Origin: an uncultured Acidimicrobiales bacterium
GTDB lineage: Bacteria > Actinomycetota > Acidimicrobiia > Acidimicrobiales > RAAP-2
Direction: 5' to 3'
Length of the DNA: 29,088 nt
NCBI GenBank assembly: GCA_963923735.1
Contig: CAWUMT010000001.1
Location: 1-29,088 of the forward strand
Shown here piece by piece: positions 7,041-26,878 of the stretch (its first letter is position 1; each line of letters begins with the position of its first letter). Under the pieces are notes generated by a model that saw nothing but the letters and a program-made list of their open reading frames with translations, ran no database searches and had not been told where the DNA came from. Made by a program: the position numbers and the translations under genes.

Positions 7041-7113
7041 GGGGGTGTAGCTCAGTTGGCAGAGCGCTACGTTCGCAATGTAGAGGCCGTGGGTTCAAAT
7101 CCCATCACCTCCA
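7041..7113 (+). tRNA. tRNA-Ala, anticodon CGC
   Basis: Acceptor stem GGGGGTG/CACCTCC with G3:U70, D-arm AGCTCAGTTGGCAGAGC, anticodon arm CTACG-TTCGCAA-TGTAG (CGC at 7074-7076), T-loop GGTTCAAATCC. CCA is not encoded. TACACT -10 at 7022-7027. Confidence 0.98.
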
Positions 7114-13294: not shown

Positions 13295-13358
13295 CGTGCC
13301 GTCACTTTCACGCACTGAAGCATAGGAGGTGGGCCTTGAAATTCTTGGTTCTCCACGC

Positions 13359-13766
13359 TCACCCTTTGGGGTCGAGCACAGAGACGGTGCACTTGGCGTC
13401 GGCAATCTGACGACCATCCTGATCGGAGAGGTCGATGTGCCACACCTGGATCGAACGACCGACCCGGATAGGGGTGGCAGTGGCCACCAGTGTGCCTTCG
13501 GTCATTGAGCGCAGGTGCGAGGCTGAGATCTCGACTCCGACGACGTTCTTGCCCTCAGCATTGAGCGCCGCACCGAAGGACGCCGCGGACTCTGCGAGCA
13601 GGGCGGACACCCCGCCATGGAGGAGTCCGAAGGGCTGGTGCACGGTGGATCCCACGGGGAGCTCTAGGACCACCTTGTCCTTGGCGGCCTCACGGATGGA
13701 GATGTCGAGGTGTGCGTGGATGCCCGAGGCCTCAACGTGGGCCTTGAACTCGCTGTGGCTCGCCAT
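13359..13766 (-). CDS. Hotdog-fold acyl-CoA thioesterase (PaaI/MenI-like)
   Basis: QPFGLLHGGVSALLAESAAS, GVEISASHLRS and GRSIQVW. Confidence 0.88.
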   Translation of the reverse strand: MASHSEFKAHVEASGIHAHLDISIREAAKDKVVLELPVGSTVHQPFGLLHGGVSALLAESAASFGAALNAEGKNVVGVEISASHLRSMTEGTLVATATPIRVGRSIQVWHIDLSDQDGRQIADAKCTVSVLDPKG

Positions 13767-13886
13767 GTGATGAGCCTAGGTCCGTCACCAACTCGTCACT
13801 GACTCATCACCCAGAGTTTGAGGGGTTTCAGCGCTTCGAAGGCCTCCGGTAGGATTCTGCGAGAACGCCGGAGTCGGGAGCGAGAC

Positions 13887-15149
13887 ATGAGCATCGAGAT
13901 GGTGAACCTCTCCTCCATCGTGCGTCGCCCGCTCGTGGACGACGCCGGTGACCGCATCGGGCGCATCGAGGACCTCGTGGTCCGCCTTGGCGACAGCCCC
14001 CACCCCCCGGTGGTGGGCCTCGTGGTGAGGATCGGCGGCCGGGACCTCTTCGTGCCGGCGCGAAAGATCCCCTCGTTCACTGGATCTCCGGTGCGCTTCC
14101 AAGGCCGCCGCGTGGACCTGCGTCGTTTCGAACGACGCGAGGGTGAGCTCCTGTTGGCCAAGGACCTCTTGGCTCGTCACCTCATCAACCTCGTCGGCGG
14201 TCGGCTCATTCGCGCCAACGACATCGTGCTGGCCCAACTCGCCGATCGCTGCGAGGTGATCGGGATCGACCCAGGCCGCCGTCCCATGCTCCGCTCGCTG
14301 CTTCCCTGGGACAAGGGTGATGGCGTCTCGAGGAGCGGGATCATCGACTTTGAGTCGATTGAGCCGTTTGTCAGTCACGTGCCCACGGCCAAGTTGCGGA
14401 TTCCCTACCGCAAGTTGGCCAAGTTGCATCCCGCCCAGATCGCCGACCTTGTCGAAGCAGCCAGCCATGAAGAGGGCGAGGAGATCATCGACTCGCTCTC
14501 GGGTGACGCAGAGCTCTCAGCCGACGTCTTCGAGGAGCTCGACCTCGAGCACCAGGTCGAGTTCATCGACGCGAAGAGCGACCTCGAGATCGCCCGACTC
14601 CTCGACCGCATGGCTCCTGACGATGCCGCCGACCTCATCGCTGAGATCGATCAGGATCGCCGCCTCGACATCTTGGGCCTCTTGCCCGCTGACTCGCAGG
14701 CCAAGGTCCGCAACCTGCTGTCCTATAACGCAGACACCGCGGGCGGGATCATGTCGCCCGACTACGTGGCGGTGGCCATGGCCGCCACGGTGCGCGACGC
14801 CCTTGAGGCAGTGCGGACCTCCAAGGCCCCCGCTGAGGCCCTCAACGTCGTCTACGTCCTCGAGCCGGACGGGACGCTGACAGGCTCCGCTCCACTGGCC
14901 ACCCTGGTGCGCTCAGCCGAGCATCTGTCGATCCAGGACGTGGCCCGCTCGGAACCCACGCTGGTGCGGCCGAGCTGGGACCTGCACACCACGGCGCGTC
15001 AGATGTCGGACTTCAACCTCACGGTTGCTCCCGTAGTGGACAAGGCCACCGGCCAGATTCTCGGCGTGGTGACCATCGATGACCTGATCGAGCTCCTCCT
15101 GCCCCAAGGGTGGCGCAAGGAATTCGGCATGGCGGCGGTGGAGGAATAG
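13887..15149 (+). CDS. Stand-alone MgtE cytoplasmic-domain protein (PRC-barrels, MgtE N-domain, CBS pair; no TM domain)
   Basis: GRIEDLVV PRC-like start, LAKLHPAQIADLVE, MAPDDAADL, TAGGIMSPDY and GVVTIDDL; no transmembrane segment. Confidence 0.85.
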   Translation: MSIEMVNLSSIVRRPLVDDAGDRIGRIEDLVVRLGDSPHPPVVGLVVRIGGRDLFVPARKIPSFTGSPVRFQGRRVDLRRFERREGELLLAKDLLARHLINLVGGRLIRANDIVLAQLADRCEVIGIDPGRRPMLRSLLPWDKGDGVSRSGIIDFESIEPFVSHVPTAKLRIPYRKLAKLHPAQIADLVEAASHEEGEEIIDSLSGDAELSADVFEELDLEHQVEFIDAKSDLEIARLLDRMAPDDAADLIAEIDQDRRLDILGLLPADSQAKVRNLLSYNADTAGGIMSPDYVAVAMAATVRDALEAVRTSKAPAEALNVVYVLEPDGTLTGSAPLATLVRSAEHLSIQDVARSEPTLVRPSWDLHTTARQMSDFNLTVAPVVDKATGQILGVVTIDDLIELLLPQGWRKEFGMAAVEE

Positions 15150-15351
15150 TCCTATGGCCGCGCACCTGTTGGACGAGTTGAGGGGGATCCGCTGAAACCC
15201 CCAAGTACCACCCGCCGAGGGGACTCCCTCGGCGCGGCGTCCTACGCGATGAGCCTGGAGGGCCAGCTTCGTAGCTGACCTCTCGAGGAGTGGCTTCTTC
15301 GTGTGGCGCCGATCCGCACACGTAGACGTCACGCCCGAGAGGAGGTGAGCA
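15150..15351 (+). promoter_or_regulatory. Structured leader, candidate translational switch
   Basis: Stems GGACG/CGTCC, GGGGG/CCCCC and CGCCGAGGG/CCCTCGGCG; CCTCTCG (15279-15285) can pair with CGAGAGG (15336-15342), which overlaps the SD. Confidence 0.45.
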
Positions 15352-16926
15352 ATGCACGCAGCCGACGATCAGTCGATCACCGGTGCCTTCGGCACCATTC
15401 AGCATGGAGACACAACCAGCCGTACCGGCGTGCGCGCCCGTCTGCTCACCCTGCTCGCCATCTTGGGTCCCGGGATCATCGTCATGGTGGGGGACAACGA
15501 CGCCGGCGGGGTGTCGACCTATGCCCAGGCCGGCCAGAACTTCGGGCTCTCCCTCCTGTGGGTGCTGCCCCTGCTGATTCCGGTGCTCGTGGTGAACCAG
15601 GAGATGGTGGTCCGTCTGGGTTCAGTGACCGGTGTCGGGCACGCTCGCCTCATCCGCGAGCGCTACGGCAAGTTCTGGGGCACCGTATCGGTCTCGAACC
15701 TGCTGGTCCTGAACTTCGCCACCATTGCCACCGAGTTCATTGGTGTGAACCTCGCTCTGTCGTATTTCCACGTCAGTGAGTACGTCTCAGTGCCCCTCGC
15801 TGGCCTCGGCCTGATCGTCATGACGACCTCGGGGAGCTTCCGACGCTGGGAGCGATTCATGTTCGTCTTCATCTTCGCCAACTTCTTGGTCATCCCTCTG
15901 GCGATCATGCGACACCCTTCGCTCGGTGACGTCGCCCACCACATGGTGGTTCCCGGAATTCAGGGAGGAGTGACTTCCGATGCGGTCCTGCTGATCATCG
16001 CCATCGTGGGAACGACGGTGGCCCCCTGGCAGCTGTTCTTCCAGCAGTCCAACATCGTGGACAAGAAGATCACGCCGAGGTGGATCAACTACGAGCGGGC
16101 CGACACCATGATCGGCTCGGTCATCACCGTCTTCGCTGCCACGCTCATCATCTGCGTCGTCGCAGCTTCTTTCGCGGGAACGAAGCTCTCGGGCCACTAC
16201 ACCGATGCCTACGGGGTGGCCCAGGGCCTCCACCACCTCGTCGGGCCGTGGGCCGGAGCCTTCTTTGCCATCATCCTGCTCAACGCATCGCTCATCGGTG
16301 CGGCCTCGGTCACGTTGGCCACCACCTACGCGATGGCAGACGTGAACCGTTCGACCCTGTCGCTCGATCGTGGCTGGCGCGAAGCGAAGGGCTTCTATGG
16401 CGCCTTCATCGCCCTCGTGGTCCTGGCCGCTGGACTGGTCCTGCTCCCCGGGGCGCCGCTCGGGCTCATCACCACCACGGTTCAAGCCCTTGCTGGACTC
16501 CTCCTGCCGATGTCGACGACGTTCCTGCTCCTGCTCTGCAACGACCCCGAGGTGCTCGGGCCATGGGTGAACCGACCCTGGCTCAACGTTCTGGCCACCG
16601 TCATCGTGAGCGTGCTCATCGTGCTGTCGTTCATCTTGATGGCCACCACGGCATTCCCTTCGATGAACGTGGTGGTGCTCTCGAGCGTCATGGCTGCACT
16701 GCTCGGCGCGGTCCTGCTCATCGCCGGGGGAATCTGGCTCCTGCGCCGGAGCCCTGCGTCAGCCAAGGTGGCCTTCGAAGAGCGAGCCTCATGGCGCATG
16801 CCGCGGGCCAACCTGCTGGACCGCCCCATCCTTGACGGTCCCCGACGCCTCGCCCTCATCGGGCTCGCCGGGTACCTCGTCCTCTCGGTGGCGATGCTGC
16901 TGGTCAAGGCCATTCAGCTCGGATGA
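15352..16926 (+). CDS. Nramp-related divalent metal (probably Mg2+) transporter
   Basis: LGPGIIVMVGDNDAGG (no DPGN), QEMVVRLG, GTTVAPWQLFFQQS and about 12 TM segments; SD GGAGG. Confidence 0.88.
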   Translation: MHAADDQSITGAFGTIQHGDTTSRTGVRARLLTLLAILGPGIIVMVGDNDAGGVSTYAQAGQNFGLSLLWVLPLLIPVLVVNQEMVVRLGSVTGVGHARLIRERYGKFWGTVSVSNLLVLNFATIATEFIGVNLALSYFHVSEYVSVPLAGLGLIVMTTSGSFRRWERFMFVFIFANFLVIPLAIMRHPSLGDVAHHMVVPGIQGGVTSDAVLLIIAIVGTTVAPWQLFFQQSNIVDKKITPRWINYERADTMIGSVITVFAATLIICVVAASFAGTKLSGHYTDAYGVAQGLHHLVGPWAGAFFAIILLNASLIGAASVTLATTYAMADVNRSTLSLDRGWREAKGFYGAFIALVVLAAGLVLLPGAPLGLITTTVQALAGLLLPMSTTFLLLLCNDPEVLGPWVNRPWLNVLATVIVSVLIVLSFILMATTAFPSMNVVVLSSVMAALLGAVLLIAGGIWLLRRSPASAKVAFEERASWRMPRANLLDRPILDGPRRLALIGLAGYLVLSVAMLLVKAIQLG

Positions 16927-17684
16927 GCCGCACCCTCGTCGCCCTGCACGCGCACCCCGACGACGAGGCGCTCTTCACTGGAGCACGGCTCGCCCTTGCC
17001 GCACGGGACGCTCAGCGCACCGTGGTGATCTGTGTCACCGATGGCTCCTTGGGGTTCGACCCCGAAGGCCGGACCCCGCTCGAAGAGGGACACGACCGAG
17101 CCGCTACCGCACTCGTTCGCTCAAGCGAGCTCTGCGCCTCGTGCCGGGAACTCGGGGTGGACCGCCTCGTCGAGCTCGGGATCCCTGACTCGGGGATGGA
17201 GGGATGGGCATCGATGGCGAACCCTGTGGCCCTCTGCAACCTCGATCCCGAGGCCCTTGGCGCCCAGATTGCCGAGGTGCTCAAGGCGGAGGGTCCCGTG
17301 ACGATCCTGACCTATGCCGACGATGGTTTCTACGGCCATCCCGATCACGTGGCCGTCCACCGGGTGGCCCTGGCCACGGCCCGGCTGCTCCCCGACGCCG
17401 AGGTCGAGGCGGTGGTGATGACCCCCGAGGGGATCGACGCAGCCCTTGACGCAGCGAGGCGTGAGGGGGGCCTGTTGCCCGAATGGCTGGGACGGCGCCT
17501 CGTGGTGCCTCACGACGAGGCCGAGGTAGTGCACACGACGCACGGTGCCTCGGTGGCCTCGGCCAAGCAGCGAGCGGTGGCCTGTCATGAGAGCCAGCTG
17601 GACAACGCGGTCCTCGCCGCGATGGCCCCGGGCCTCTTTGCTGCGGTCTTCGGCACCGAGCGTTACGTCCGAGTGGACGTCTGA
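16923..17684 (+). CDS. PIG-L/LmbE family deacetylase (MshB/Mca-like)
   Basis: HAHPDDE, DSGM, YGHPDH and ACHESQ; ATG overlaps the transporter stop. Confidence 0.85.
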   Translation: MSRTLVALHAHPDDEALFTGARLALAARDAQRTVVICVTDGSLGFDPEGRTPLEEGHDRAATALVRSSELCASCRELGVDRLVELGIPDSGMEGWASMANPVALCNLDPEALGAQIAEVLKAEGPVTILTYADDGFYGHPDHVAVHRVALATARLLPDAEVEAVVMTPEGIDAALDAARREGGLLPEWLGRRLVVPHDEAEVVHTTHGASVASAKQRAVACHESQLDNAVLAAMAPGLFAAVFGTERYVRVDV

Positions 17685-17702: not shown

Positions 17703-18569
17703 ATGGCCGAGGTCACTCCGACGATCCTGCTGGTGCACGCGCACCCTGACGATGAGGCCTCGACGACCGGGGGAACGATCGCCCGCTATGCCGCCGCCGG
17801 TGCGCGCGTGGTGCTGGTCACCTGCACCAACGGCGAGCTGGGGGACACTCCCGAGGGCCTCAAGCCCGAACACGACGATCACGACACGGCACTCGTGGCG
17901 GCCCACCGCCTGGCCGAGCTCGAGGAGTCCGTCCGGATCCTCGGGATCTCCCGCTCAGTGCTGCTCGGATATCACGACTCGGGGATGGAGGGTTGGGAGT
18001 ACAACGAGGACGTCCGATCCTTCTTCCTGACGCCACTGGCCGAGGCGGCGGCCAAGCTGGCCATCGTGCTTGAGGAGGAGCAGCCCGACGTCGTGATCAC
18101 CTATGACGAGAACGGCTTCTACGGTCACCCTGACCACATCAAGGCCAACCGAACCACCCATGCCGCGCTGAAGTTGTCCGGCCAGTCGCCGAAGCTCTAC
18201 TACGCCACTATCCCGCGCTCGGCGTTCGCCCAACTTGGCGAGGTCATGGCCCGTCACGGAATCGAGGCACCCGGTGGACCCGAGGGCGACGACACGCCGG
18301 CACCGACCATCGGGGCCTTCGACGATCAGGTCGCCGCCACCCTCGACGTGAGCGCGTTCACCTCGGCCAAGCGCGCCTCATTGGTGGCCCACGCCTCCCA
18401 GACGGCGCAGACCTTCTTCGTCCAGATCCCCGAGGAGGTCTTCGGGGAGATCTTCGCCACCGAGTTCTTCGAACGCGTGGACGCCGAATGGACCGAGGTC
18501 GAAGACGACCTGTTGACGGGGACGCGCTTCGACGGCTTCTTGGCCCGGGCGGAGGCCCGAGCCGACTGA
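17703..18569 (+). CDS. PIG-L/LmbE family deacetylase (MshB/Mca-like), second paralog
   Basis: HAHPDDE, CTNGELG, GYHDSGM, YGHPDHI and AHASQ. Confidence 0.9.
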   Translation: MAEVTPTILLVHAHPDDEASTTGGTIARYAAAGARVVLVTCTNGELGDTPEGLKPEHDDHDTALVAAHRLAELEESVRILGISRSVLLGYHDSGMEGWEYNEDVRSFFLTPLAEAAAKLAIVLEEEQPDVVITYDENGFYGHPDHIKANRTTHAALKLSGQSPKLYYATIPRSAFAQLGEVMARHGIEAPGGPEGDDTPAPTIGAFDDQVAATLDVSAFTSAKRASLVAHASQTAQTFFVQIPEEVFGEIFATEFFERVDAEWTEVEDDLLTGTRFDGFLARAEARAD

Positions 18570-26749: not shown

Positions 26750-26878
26750 GCGACCTTGAGGGGAAGCCGGTCAAAGTCCGGCACTGGTCCGCAACCGTAG
26801 GCAGCACGAGTCATCGTGCAGCGAGTCGGGATACCTCAGGGACGCCCAAACCACCTGCAGCGTCGAGACACGCGGGCG
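26750..26878 (+). ncRNA. Cobalamin riboswitch (compact form)
   Basis: GGGAA-GCCGG-TCAAAGT-CCGGC-ACTGGTCCGCAACCGTA ... GAGTCGGGATACC; closing stem CCTTGAG/CTCAGGG; downstream GCGT-CGAGAC-ACGC hairpin; TAGGTT -10 at 26726-26731. Confidence 0.9.

Follow-up and report, generated by a model that had tools for sequence, protein, structure and literature searches.

Outside the enterobacteria, the control of Mg2+ uptake is known mainly through the M-box riboswitch, and most work on leader open reading frames (ORFs) that are read by the ribosome, such as mgtL, mgtP, and mgtQ, concerns Salmonella and E. coli. One of the described precedents is MgtL, which shows Mg2+-dependent intrinsic ribosome destabilization. 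The closest published system to the locus described here appears, by analogy, to be mgtQ of Salmonella, an 8-codon ORF flanked by mgtC and mgtB (Choi et al. 2021, PMC8092293). Our subject is a 202-nt gap (positions 15150-15351, + strand) in a 29,088-nt stretch of DNA, which we call the window, from a metagenome-assembled genome (MAG) of the Acidimicrobiia (66% G+C, 74% complete). The gap runs from the TAG stop of a gene encoding MgtE_N and CBS domains, with a weak PRC-barrel, to the ATG of an Nramp gene (15352). Sequence comparison and modeled folding suggest that it is probably a translated regulatory leader and not an aptamer, in which a relay of ribosomes would unmask the Shine-Dalgarno (SD) sequence of the downstream transporter gene.

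This transporter gene (15352..16926, + strand; Pfam Nramp, 2.1e-75) can be assigned to a described family. In Nramp-related Mg2+ transporters (NRMT), DxxG in helix 1 and TxxA/T in helix 6 replace DxxN and AxxM (PMC8806188). The pairing of an NrmT gene with a gene for an MgtE-like fragment was described by Shin et al. 2014 (PMC4072509), where one such protein with an MgtE-like neighbor seemingly preferred Mn2+. In the window, the transporter has D-A-G-G in helix 1 and T-T-V-A-P-W in helix 6, both invariant among nine orthologues, and an MgtE cytoplasmic-domain gene lies next to it; by sequence, it fits the DxxG-TxxA signature of the NRMT clade, and we predict that it transports Mg2+. The upstream gene (13818..15149, + strand; Pfam MgtE_N 5.9e-20, CBS 8.8e-12, PRC 1.3e-4) encodes a soluble product which, judged by its domains, is the "MgtE-like fragment" partner of NRMT transporters.

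Two putative reading frames and their conserved core

A search of 61 related genomes, together with a one-genome-per-species scan, gave 110 orthologous loci, in which the transporters are 53-76% identical; they come from Acidimicrobiia and Thermoleophilia, plus single MAGs labeled Dormibacterota and Acidobacteriota. In most of them a MgtE_N-CBS gene lies upstream on the same strand, separated by 160-450 nt, and in a few the two genes are just 3-53 nt apart and have no leader. After removal of duplicates, 104 upstream regions were compared, and a short ORF is recognizable in about 84 of them. This comparison supports a regulatory leader within an operon, as put forward in a first-pass annotation of the window, and shows that the leader is conserved. 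The most conserved stretch of the window's group was found by nhmmer, with no fixed pattern, in 20 of the 104 regions, and a pattern search added 13 leaders, for a total of 33. Among the 401 Acidimicrobiia genomes covered by the pattern search, the core was present in 16 (including 12 of the 13 genomes of one genus), with a single match in each and thus no second genomic copy; these 16 comprised the 13 new leaders, two that were already in the set, and one chance match outside the transporter context (L111).

Gaps of the window's genus have a common order: GGRGG, 4-7 nt, the invariant CUGAAACCCCCAAGUACC, a hairpin, a CCUCC-like tract, and the SD. The invariant 18-nt core of the window's group, CUGAAACCCCCNAGUACC, encodes L/M-K-P-P-S-T in the frame CUG AAA CCC CCN AGU ACC. 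Almost every substitution in the core hits a third codon position. In the 20 leaders from the nhmmer search, changes within K-P-P-S are confined to the third positions of the two Pro codons, and all four bases have been seen at the third position of the second one. In other lineages, the nine bases AAACCCCCN are missing and the sequence reads CUG AGU ACY, an in-frame difference of 9 nt. On this pattern of variation, the most conserved stretch appears to behave as codons, not as an aptamer core. The wobble pattern is that of the plus strand; two minus-strand ORFs (14913-15332 and 15019-15405), which had no family matches, were rejected as coding.

The window's own version of the invariant K-P-P-S-T block, AAA CCC CCA AGT ACC (15195..15209, + strand), places CCC-C two codons past the putative start, and we propose that it acts as a ribosome "speed bump". 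In E. coli, CCC-C near a start codon is the context most dependent on m1G37 and EF-P, and TrmD, in turn, needs Mg2+ (PMC6335274). Two other codons of the block are rare in the window's genes, where AAA accounts for 1 of 42 Lys codons and AGT for 6 of 123 Ser codons. The start of this ORF thus combines CCC-C with rare AAA and AGU, all of a hard-to-translate kind.

The block opens the second of two upstream ORFs (uORFs), both of which appear from their sequences to be translated. The first, uORF1 (15154..15195, + strand), has 13 codons (MAAHLLDELRGIR) and ends at the TGA within an invariant CTGA. Its SD would be GGAGGA (15140..15145, + strand), located 8 nt 5' of the ATG in the last codons (V-E-E) of the upstream gene; GGTGGAGGAG/A stands directly before the stop in most of the 33 leaders. 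In 32 of the 33 leaders, an ATG or GTG at -3 to +11 relative to the stop of the upstream gene begins a frame that runs open to the UGA of CUGA, compared with one and two leaders for the control frames, and the upstream stop and uORF1 start usually take the form ATGA, GTGA, TAATG, or TAGTG. The uORF1 peptide is not conserved, and its internal GGRGG is read in differing frames between genomes. In one leader (L126), an additional base in the spacer fuses uORF1 in frame into K-P-P-S-T.

The second, uORF2 (15192..15278, + strand), has 28 codons from a CTG (LKPPSTTRRGDSLGAASYAMSLEGQLRS) and stops at TGA (15276-15278). It is preceded by an SD-like GAGGGGG (15180..15186, + strand; GGRGG in relatives), which lies 4-7 nt 5' of the CTG and is also the 5' arm of a GGGGG/CCCCC hairpin. 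In every one of the 33 leaders, this frame is open over 16-28 codons, and its stop codons interchange (TAG in 15, TGA in 12, TAA in 6). Within 15 nt past the stop, 24 of the 33 leaders have a CCUCC-like tract, vs a background of 9.5% elsewhere in the leaders. Presumably, CUG is the start codon of uORF2, and re-initiation connects the two ORFs. We also observed that CUG after a good SD is the apparent leader-ORF start in three Acidimicrobiia leader classes (about 55 leaders), and that in the K-P-P-S-T class this position never holds AUG or GUG; such conservation of a weak start codon is unusual.

Two other routes into the K-P-P-S-T frame were considered and rejected. A programmed frameshift from uORF1 would find a G-run that permits a -1 slip in one subgroup only, and in the window's genus it is excluded by GGAGG and by non-slippery codons before the UGA. 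Entry by read-through or frameshifting out of the upstream gene does not agree with a frame relation that changes from genome to genome.

Folding of the leader and masking of the transporter SD

The gap folds strongly: its minimum free energy is -100.6 kcal/mol (z = -3.24), and none of 200 shuffles folds as well. All the helices described in the first-pass annotation exist, namely GGACG (15171) with CGTCC (15238), GGGGG (15182) with CCCCC (15198), a 9-bp hairpin inside uORF2 (15213..15234, + strand) with CGCCGAGGG at 15213, the loop GACT, and CCCTCGGCG at 15226, the alternative hairpins CTGG-AGGG-CCAG (15255-15266) and CAGC-TTCGTA-GCTG (15264-15277), and the base of a 3' hairpin, CCTCTCG (15279) with CGAGAGG (15336). 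Their conservation is uneven. Hairpins of 7-10 bp with different sequences occupy the place of the 9-bp hairpin in 12 of 12 leaders from the window's genus and its sister genus (z from -1.1 to -3.4); outside these genera, this hairpin is lost or replaced by a short one of 4 bp. GGGGG/CCCCC is mostly GGAGG/CCCCC in congeners, which leaves a central A.C mismatch, with one compensatory case, GGAGG/CCUCC (L036). When the minimum free energy fold of the window was mapped on the 11 aligned closest leaders, the GGACG/CGTCC helices paired in 36-52% of cells, and the three-way junction was rejected as a conserved fold. The helix between the anti-SD and the SD paired in 64% of cells in the same leaders, with some double changes.

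It is this last helix that bears on the transporter gene. The anti-SD strand, CCTCTCG (15279..15285, + strand), begins directly 3' of the uORF2 stop and pairs with 15336-15342, where CGAGAGG overlaps the transporter SD, GAGAGGAGG (15337-15345; the two together span 15336..15345, + strand). That the 3' hairpin masks the SD of an Mg-type Nramp gene, as had been proposed, holds for the window and recurs in its relatives: across 30 leaders, the duplex between the sequence flanking the uORF2 stop and the SD region has a mean z of -1.6 against shuffles. The further suggestion that purine tracts serve as anti-anti-SD had to be abandoned, since their pairing with the anti-SD is on average not above that of shuffles (z -0.2) and is not conserved.

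We mimicked the ribosome footprint by forcing 29-30 nt to be single stranded during folding. In the same 30 leaders, mean SD accessibility was 0.27 in the free RNA, 0.27 with a ribosome at the uORF1 stop, and 0.53 with a ribosome at the uORF2 stop, the only position that opens the SD. In the window itself, accessibility rose from 0.02 in the free RNA to 0.56 with a ribosome at the uORF2 stop. The masking structure is thus interwoven with the uORFs, its anti-SD abutting the uORF2 stop, and the computed effect of a ribosome there is to unmask the SD.

We propose that these elements would work as a relay. Ribosomes that finish the upstream MgtE_N-CBS gene, or that bind at its terminal GGAGGA, would translate uORF1 and terminate at the UGA of CUGA, where the GGRGG 4-7 nt 5' could hold the small subunit. 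A re-start at the overlapping CUG would then lead to translation of uORF2, beginning with the K-P-P-S-T codons and ending right at the 5' edge of the CCUCC-like strand, which would otherwise be paired with the transporter SD. A ribosome at the uORF2 stop would occupy the anti-SD strand, and the freed SD would allow the NRMT gene to be translated. The Pro-Pro and rare-codon block near the start of uORF2 is the probable throttle on this relay, and passage past it would be set by the state of translation, that is, by EF-P, m1G37-tRNAPro, and ribosome stability. In enterobacteria, all three are tied to Mg2+. Mg2+ is the putative signal here, and the sign of the response is likewise conjectural.

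Related leaders and neighboring genes

In sister lineages, a single ORF runs from the upstream stop through R-R-E-R-R-P-(A)-S-T or M-E-P-P-H-T. The codons of the latter, AUG GAA CCY CCA CAU ACC, are very close to CUG AAA CCC CCA AGU ACC in the window. Another 22 or so Acidimicrobiia leaders show AAGGAGCA, 3-4 nt, and a CUG that opens L-H/S-A-D-P-S-P-R-R-F-T-R-A-R-R...; in L057, L063, L070, and L106, an in-frame stop lies just 5', so that CUG is the sole possible start there. A uORF1-like ORF ending at CUGA is present in some of the other CUG classes and absent in others, and we rejected it as a general trait of these classes.

Some 28 leaders of the Thermoleophilia type have GAAAGGAGG, 5 nt, and an ATG or GTG that opens M-D-R-E-Q-P-R-S-T-Q-P-A-A-R.... 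The N-termini of these peptides are acidic and Pro-rich, and the more divergent ones retain acidic residues followed by P-R/H-S-T/S/K. In 17 distinct sequences, the start is ATG in 14 and GTG in 3, synonymous codons alternate (GAC/GAT, CCA/CCG, GCA/GCG, and CGC/CGT), and variable sites number 4, 4, and 8 at the first, second, and third codon positions, respectively; CGA and AGU never change. Compact leaders of this type have CCCUCC in the last uORF codons, and placing a ribosome at the uORF stop raises their SD accessibility to 0.27-0.94, from 0.00-0.07 in the free RNA. Taken with the folding results for the window's class, this suggests that two classes unrelated in sequence share one design, in which the uORF ends on the anti-SD. 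Two side observations concern the Thermoleophilia leaders. In L062, L065, L069, L073, L074, L077, L092, L095, L096, and L099, GYTGCTAGGCTGAG or GTGCTACCCTGAG lies about 45-50 nt 5' of the uORF ATG, and its conserved TANNNT -10-like box (TAGGCT) suggests that the leader may have its own promoter within the gap. There is also a long-range helix, CGCACGC/GCGUGCG, with some covariation, between the middle part of the uORF and a site past its stop.

Six sibling loci (L045:2034-2201, L055:1998-2180, L058:2057-2224, L059:2041-2208, L109:2043-2207, and L088:2048-2218) have an M-box (RF00380) 5' of the orthologous NRMT gene, where it scores 115-126 bits; membership in the family was set at 44 bits or more. 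In each case, an SD and a short CUG-started ORF follow 50-110 nt later (LSADRRSSERRRR..., LYADSRLPDHRR..., LNADSWLRTAPARAAR...). Because the M-box precedes a CUG uORF at every one of these loci, riboswitch and uORF would act in series. This suggests that a uORF can be the expression platform of a riboswitch, in which case "uORF translated" would presumably mean "transporter on". In the window, the same search gave no RF00380 match, either at the gathering score or, in 15050-15450, at E<=10, in agreement with the reported absence of an M-box; the yybP-ykoY and NiCo families, for which an Rfam check had been advised, are absent as well. Across the gap, the only match to Rfam 15 at E<=10 was a chance one to DicF (12.4 bits, E = 5.6). 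At gathering scores, the sole Rfam matches in the window are a cobalamin riboswitch (26761-26835, 34 bits) and a tRNA (7041-7113).

A promoter and terminator scan of 13300-15500 gave no sites and no intrinsic terminator. Two genes of the PIG-L (GlcNAc-PI de-N-acetylase) family lie 3' of the transporter (16923-17684 and 17703-18569); the first overlaps the transporter stop (ATGA, 16923-16926), and the two may therefore share the transporter transcript. In one locus (L027; genome G005, contig 3), the transporter gene is split into three pieces and the leader with both uORFs is intact; as the pieces are in different frames, a pseudogene or assembly errors are likely. In eight others (L039, L041, L044, L035, L033, L051, L036, and L115), SD GAAAGGAGGTGGAGC-GTG opens a separate ORF of at least 31 codons that ends about 11 nt before a weaker transporter start; in close relatives, the same SD and GTG are the start of the transporter ORF, and the separate ORF represents an additional small ORF or else a split N-terminus. 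None of 41 genomes of this Acidimicrobiia family yielded an MgtE channel domain, and CorA was found in 3 of 13 family genomes with NRMT vs 7 of 7 without it, the related genomes not being independent; CorA was not found in the window's own genome, which is 74% complete. These tallies include the unpublished genomes G021 and G461, and we build no claim on them. As NRMT tends in this family to occur where CorA is not found, and no MgtE channel domain was found, NRMT may be the main route of Mg2+ entry where CorA is missing, and the leader may govern that route.

Alternative explanations and comparison with known systems

Several observations weigh against the relay. The evidence for translation comes from sequence comparison and modeled folding, and 13 of the 33 leaders were retrieved by a pattern that itself fixes most core positions. 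CUG is a poor start, yet it is invariant in the 33 leaders, which simple start-codon selection fails to explain. AAA, AGU, and, in Thermoleophilia, CGA never vary synonymously, so a constraint at the RNA level must also act. The distance from the motif to the uORF stop varies between lineages from 1 to about 40 codons, which makes a TnaC-type termination arrest of fixed geometry unlikely. With a ribosome stalled on Pro-Pro, the mean SD accessibility of the 30 leaders is 0.27; the SD stays closed. If Pro-Pro stalling rises at low Mg2+, a switch that is on when uORF2 is finished would lower the importer when Mg2+ is scarce, which is the wrong direction. Finally, since the M-box co-occurs with a uORF, the uORF need not itself be the Mg2+ sensor. 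A broader proposal is more tentative still: there may be a phylum-wide family of NRMT leader peptides in Actinomycetota with the core P-x-S-T, of which the window's lineage would have a two-step relay whose CCC-C and rare-codon passage is itself the Mg2+ sensor, doing the job of the M-box without a ligand-binding RNA.

Of the alternatives, constitutive coupling without sensing stands up best, although we consider it unlikely. The uORFs would merely pass ribosomes across the structured gap and fix a low ratio of transporter to sensor, with the consequence that the transporter is never made without its gatekeeper protein. On the one hand, this would fit the tie of uORF1 to the upstream stop in all but one of the 33 leaders, the relatives in which the two genes nearly adjoin with no leader, and an SD that is masked unless a ribosome reaches the uORF2 stop. 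On the other hand, it leaves the invariant rare-codon K-P-P-S-T and the P-x-S-T core shared across classes unexplained, and Thermoleophilia leaders, with their own SD and AUG and the conserved -10-like TAGGCT, would not be coupled to the upstream gene.

A transcriptional read-out of the same translated leader seems to us rather doubtful. A ribosome paused on K-P-P-S-T would block Rho at a C-rich, G-poor stretch, so that slow translation at low Mg2+ leads to read-through; fast translation would expose the stretch and Rho would terminate, as in mgtA/mgtL and tnaC. This arrangement gives the physiologically expected sign, has a precedent in mgtL, which uses Rho, and suits a gap in which no intrinsic terminator is present. 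The 60-nt tract from the CUG has a mean C content of 0.37-0.41 vs 0.20-0.27 for G in the 33 leaders; however, this skew is modest and comes partly from the Pro and Thr codons themselves, and Rho alone would not explain why the uORF stop is consistently placed on the anti-SD.

The first-pass annotation had proposed a metal-responsive RNA. A new ligand- or metal-binding riboswitch, with CUGAAACCCCCNAGUACC as its aptamer core and the ORFs as by-products of high G+C content, could draw on the strong fold (the z-score given above), on nucleotides that are invariant at synonymous sites (AAA, AGU, and CGA), and on a gap that occupies the place held by the M-box in sibling loci. We nevertheless consider it improbable. 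A riboswitch would be expected to have a multi-helix core with covariation across distant members; here, no such core is kept across genera, there is no helix set common to different genera, and the conserved stretch varies like codons, its freely varying positions being wobble positions only. The behavior of start and stop codons fits coding, a 9-nt in-frame indel separates lineages, similarity between classes is clearer in peptide than in RNA, and another class has homologous peptides that start with AUG or GUG. The lack of an Rfam match also speaks against it. A more general warning follows from this locus: in high-G+C genomes, strongly folding and highly conserved gaps that look like riboswitches can be coding. 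Least probable is a role of the short ORFs as genes for functional small proteins, such as a transporter modulator like MgtR, MgtS, or MntS: conservation of the ORFs and, in one class, a good SD and AUG speak for it, but the peptides are hydrophilic, 9-48 residues long, and unconserved beyond an N-terminal motif of 4-5 residues, the ORFs are interwoven with hairpins and their stops tied to the anti-SD, and six leader peptides had no family match in Pfam or NCBIfam.

With the translated relay as the preferred explanation, the window can be set beside the known systems. In common with mgtL, mgtP, and mgtQ, it has a conserved short ORF, equipped with start signals, immediately 5' of a gene for a (here, predicted) Mg2+ transporter. 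As in mgtQ, this ORF is intergenic, within an operon; translation of mgtQ frees a ribosome-binding site that is sequestered in an inhibitory stem-loop, and hard-to-translate codons matter there, too. However, mgtQ is a single 8-codon AUG ORF with Asp and Glu codons before the gene of a P-type ATPase in a proteobacterium, whereas in the window two ORFs, of 13 and 28 codons, overlap at CUGA, the second has a CUG start and K-P-P-S-T, and the gene that follows is an NRMT gene of Acidimicrobiia. The two have no sequence similarity, and mgtQ works as a 1:2/2:3 toggle, in contrast to an anti-SD at the ORF stop in the window.

The ORFs mgtL (mgtA leader) and mgtP (mgtCBR leader) of Salmonella and E. 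coli are also leader ORFs before Mg2+ transporter genes, and ribosome progress over their Pro codons depends on Mg2+, EF-P, tRNAPro charging, and m1G37. MgtL (MEPDPTPLPRRR...) resembles the sibling peptides LHADPSPRRF... and MEPPHT..., but the resemblance is compositional only: the search with six leader peptides against NCBIfam and Pfam gave no homology to MgtL, MgtP, or MgtQ. The two systems differ from the window in their output, which is Rho-dependent transcription termination in a 5' leader and not the predicted unmasking of an SD in an intergenic region, and in their peptides, which are acidic, the window's peptide being basic.

The M-box (ykoK, RF00380) stands before orthologous NRMT genes and presumably serves the same homeostatic purpose; in the six sibling loci, it lies upstream of the CUG uORF and does not replace it. 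The published NrmT/NRMT operons (PMC4072509; Ramanadane et al. 2022, PMC8806188) have the same gene pair and the DxxG-TxxA metal site, but the papers describe M-box control or no leader; in them we found no leader ORF described, and we found no published account of leader ORFs for NRMT operons. The window adds features that lend themselves to testing: the conserved CUG start, the CUGA stop-start overlap, the rare-codon Pro-Pro block, and a stop codon placed on the anti-SD. The locus suggests that the logic of the enterobacterial leader ORFs also evolved for NRMT, another family of transporters, in uncultured Actinomycetota from freshwater and soil.

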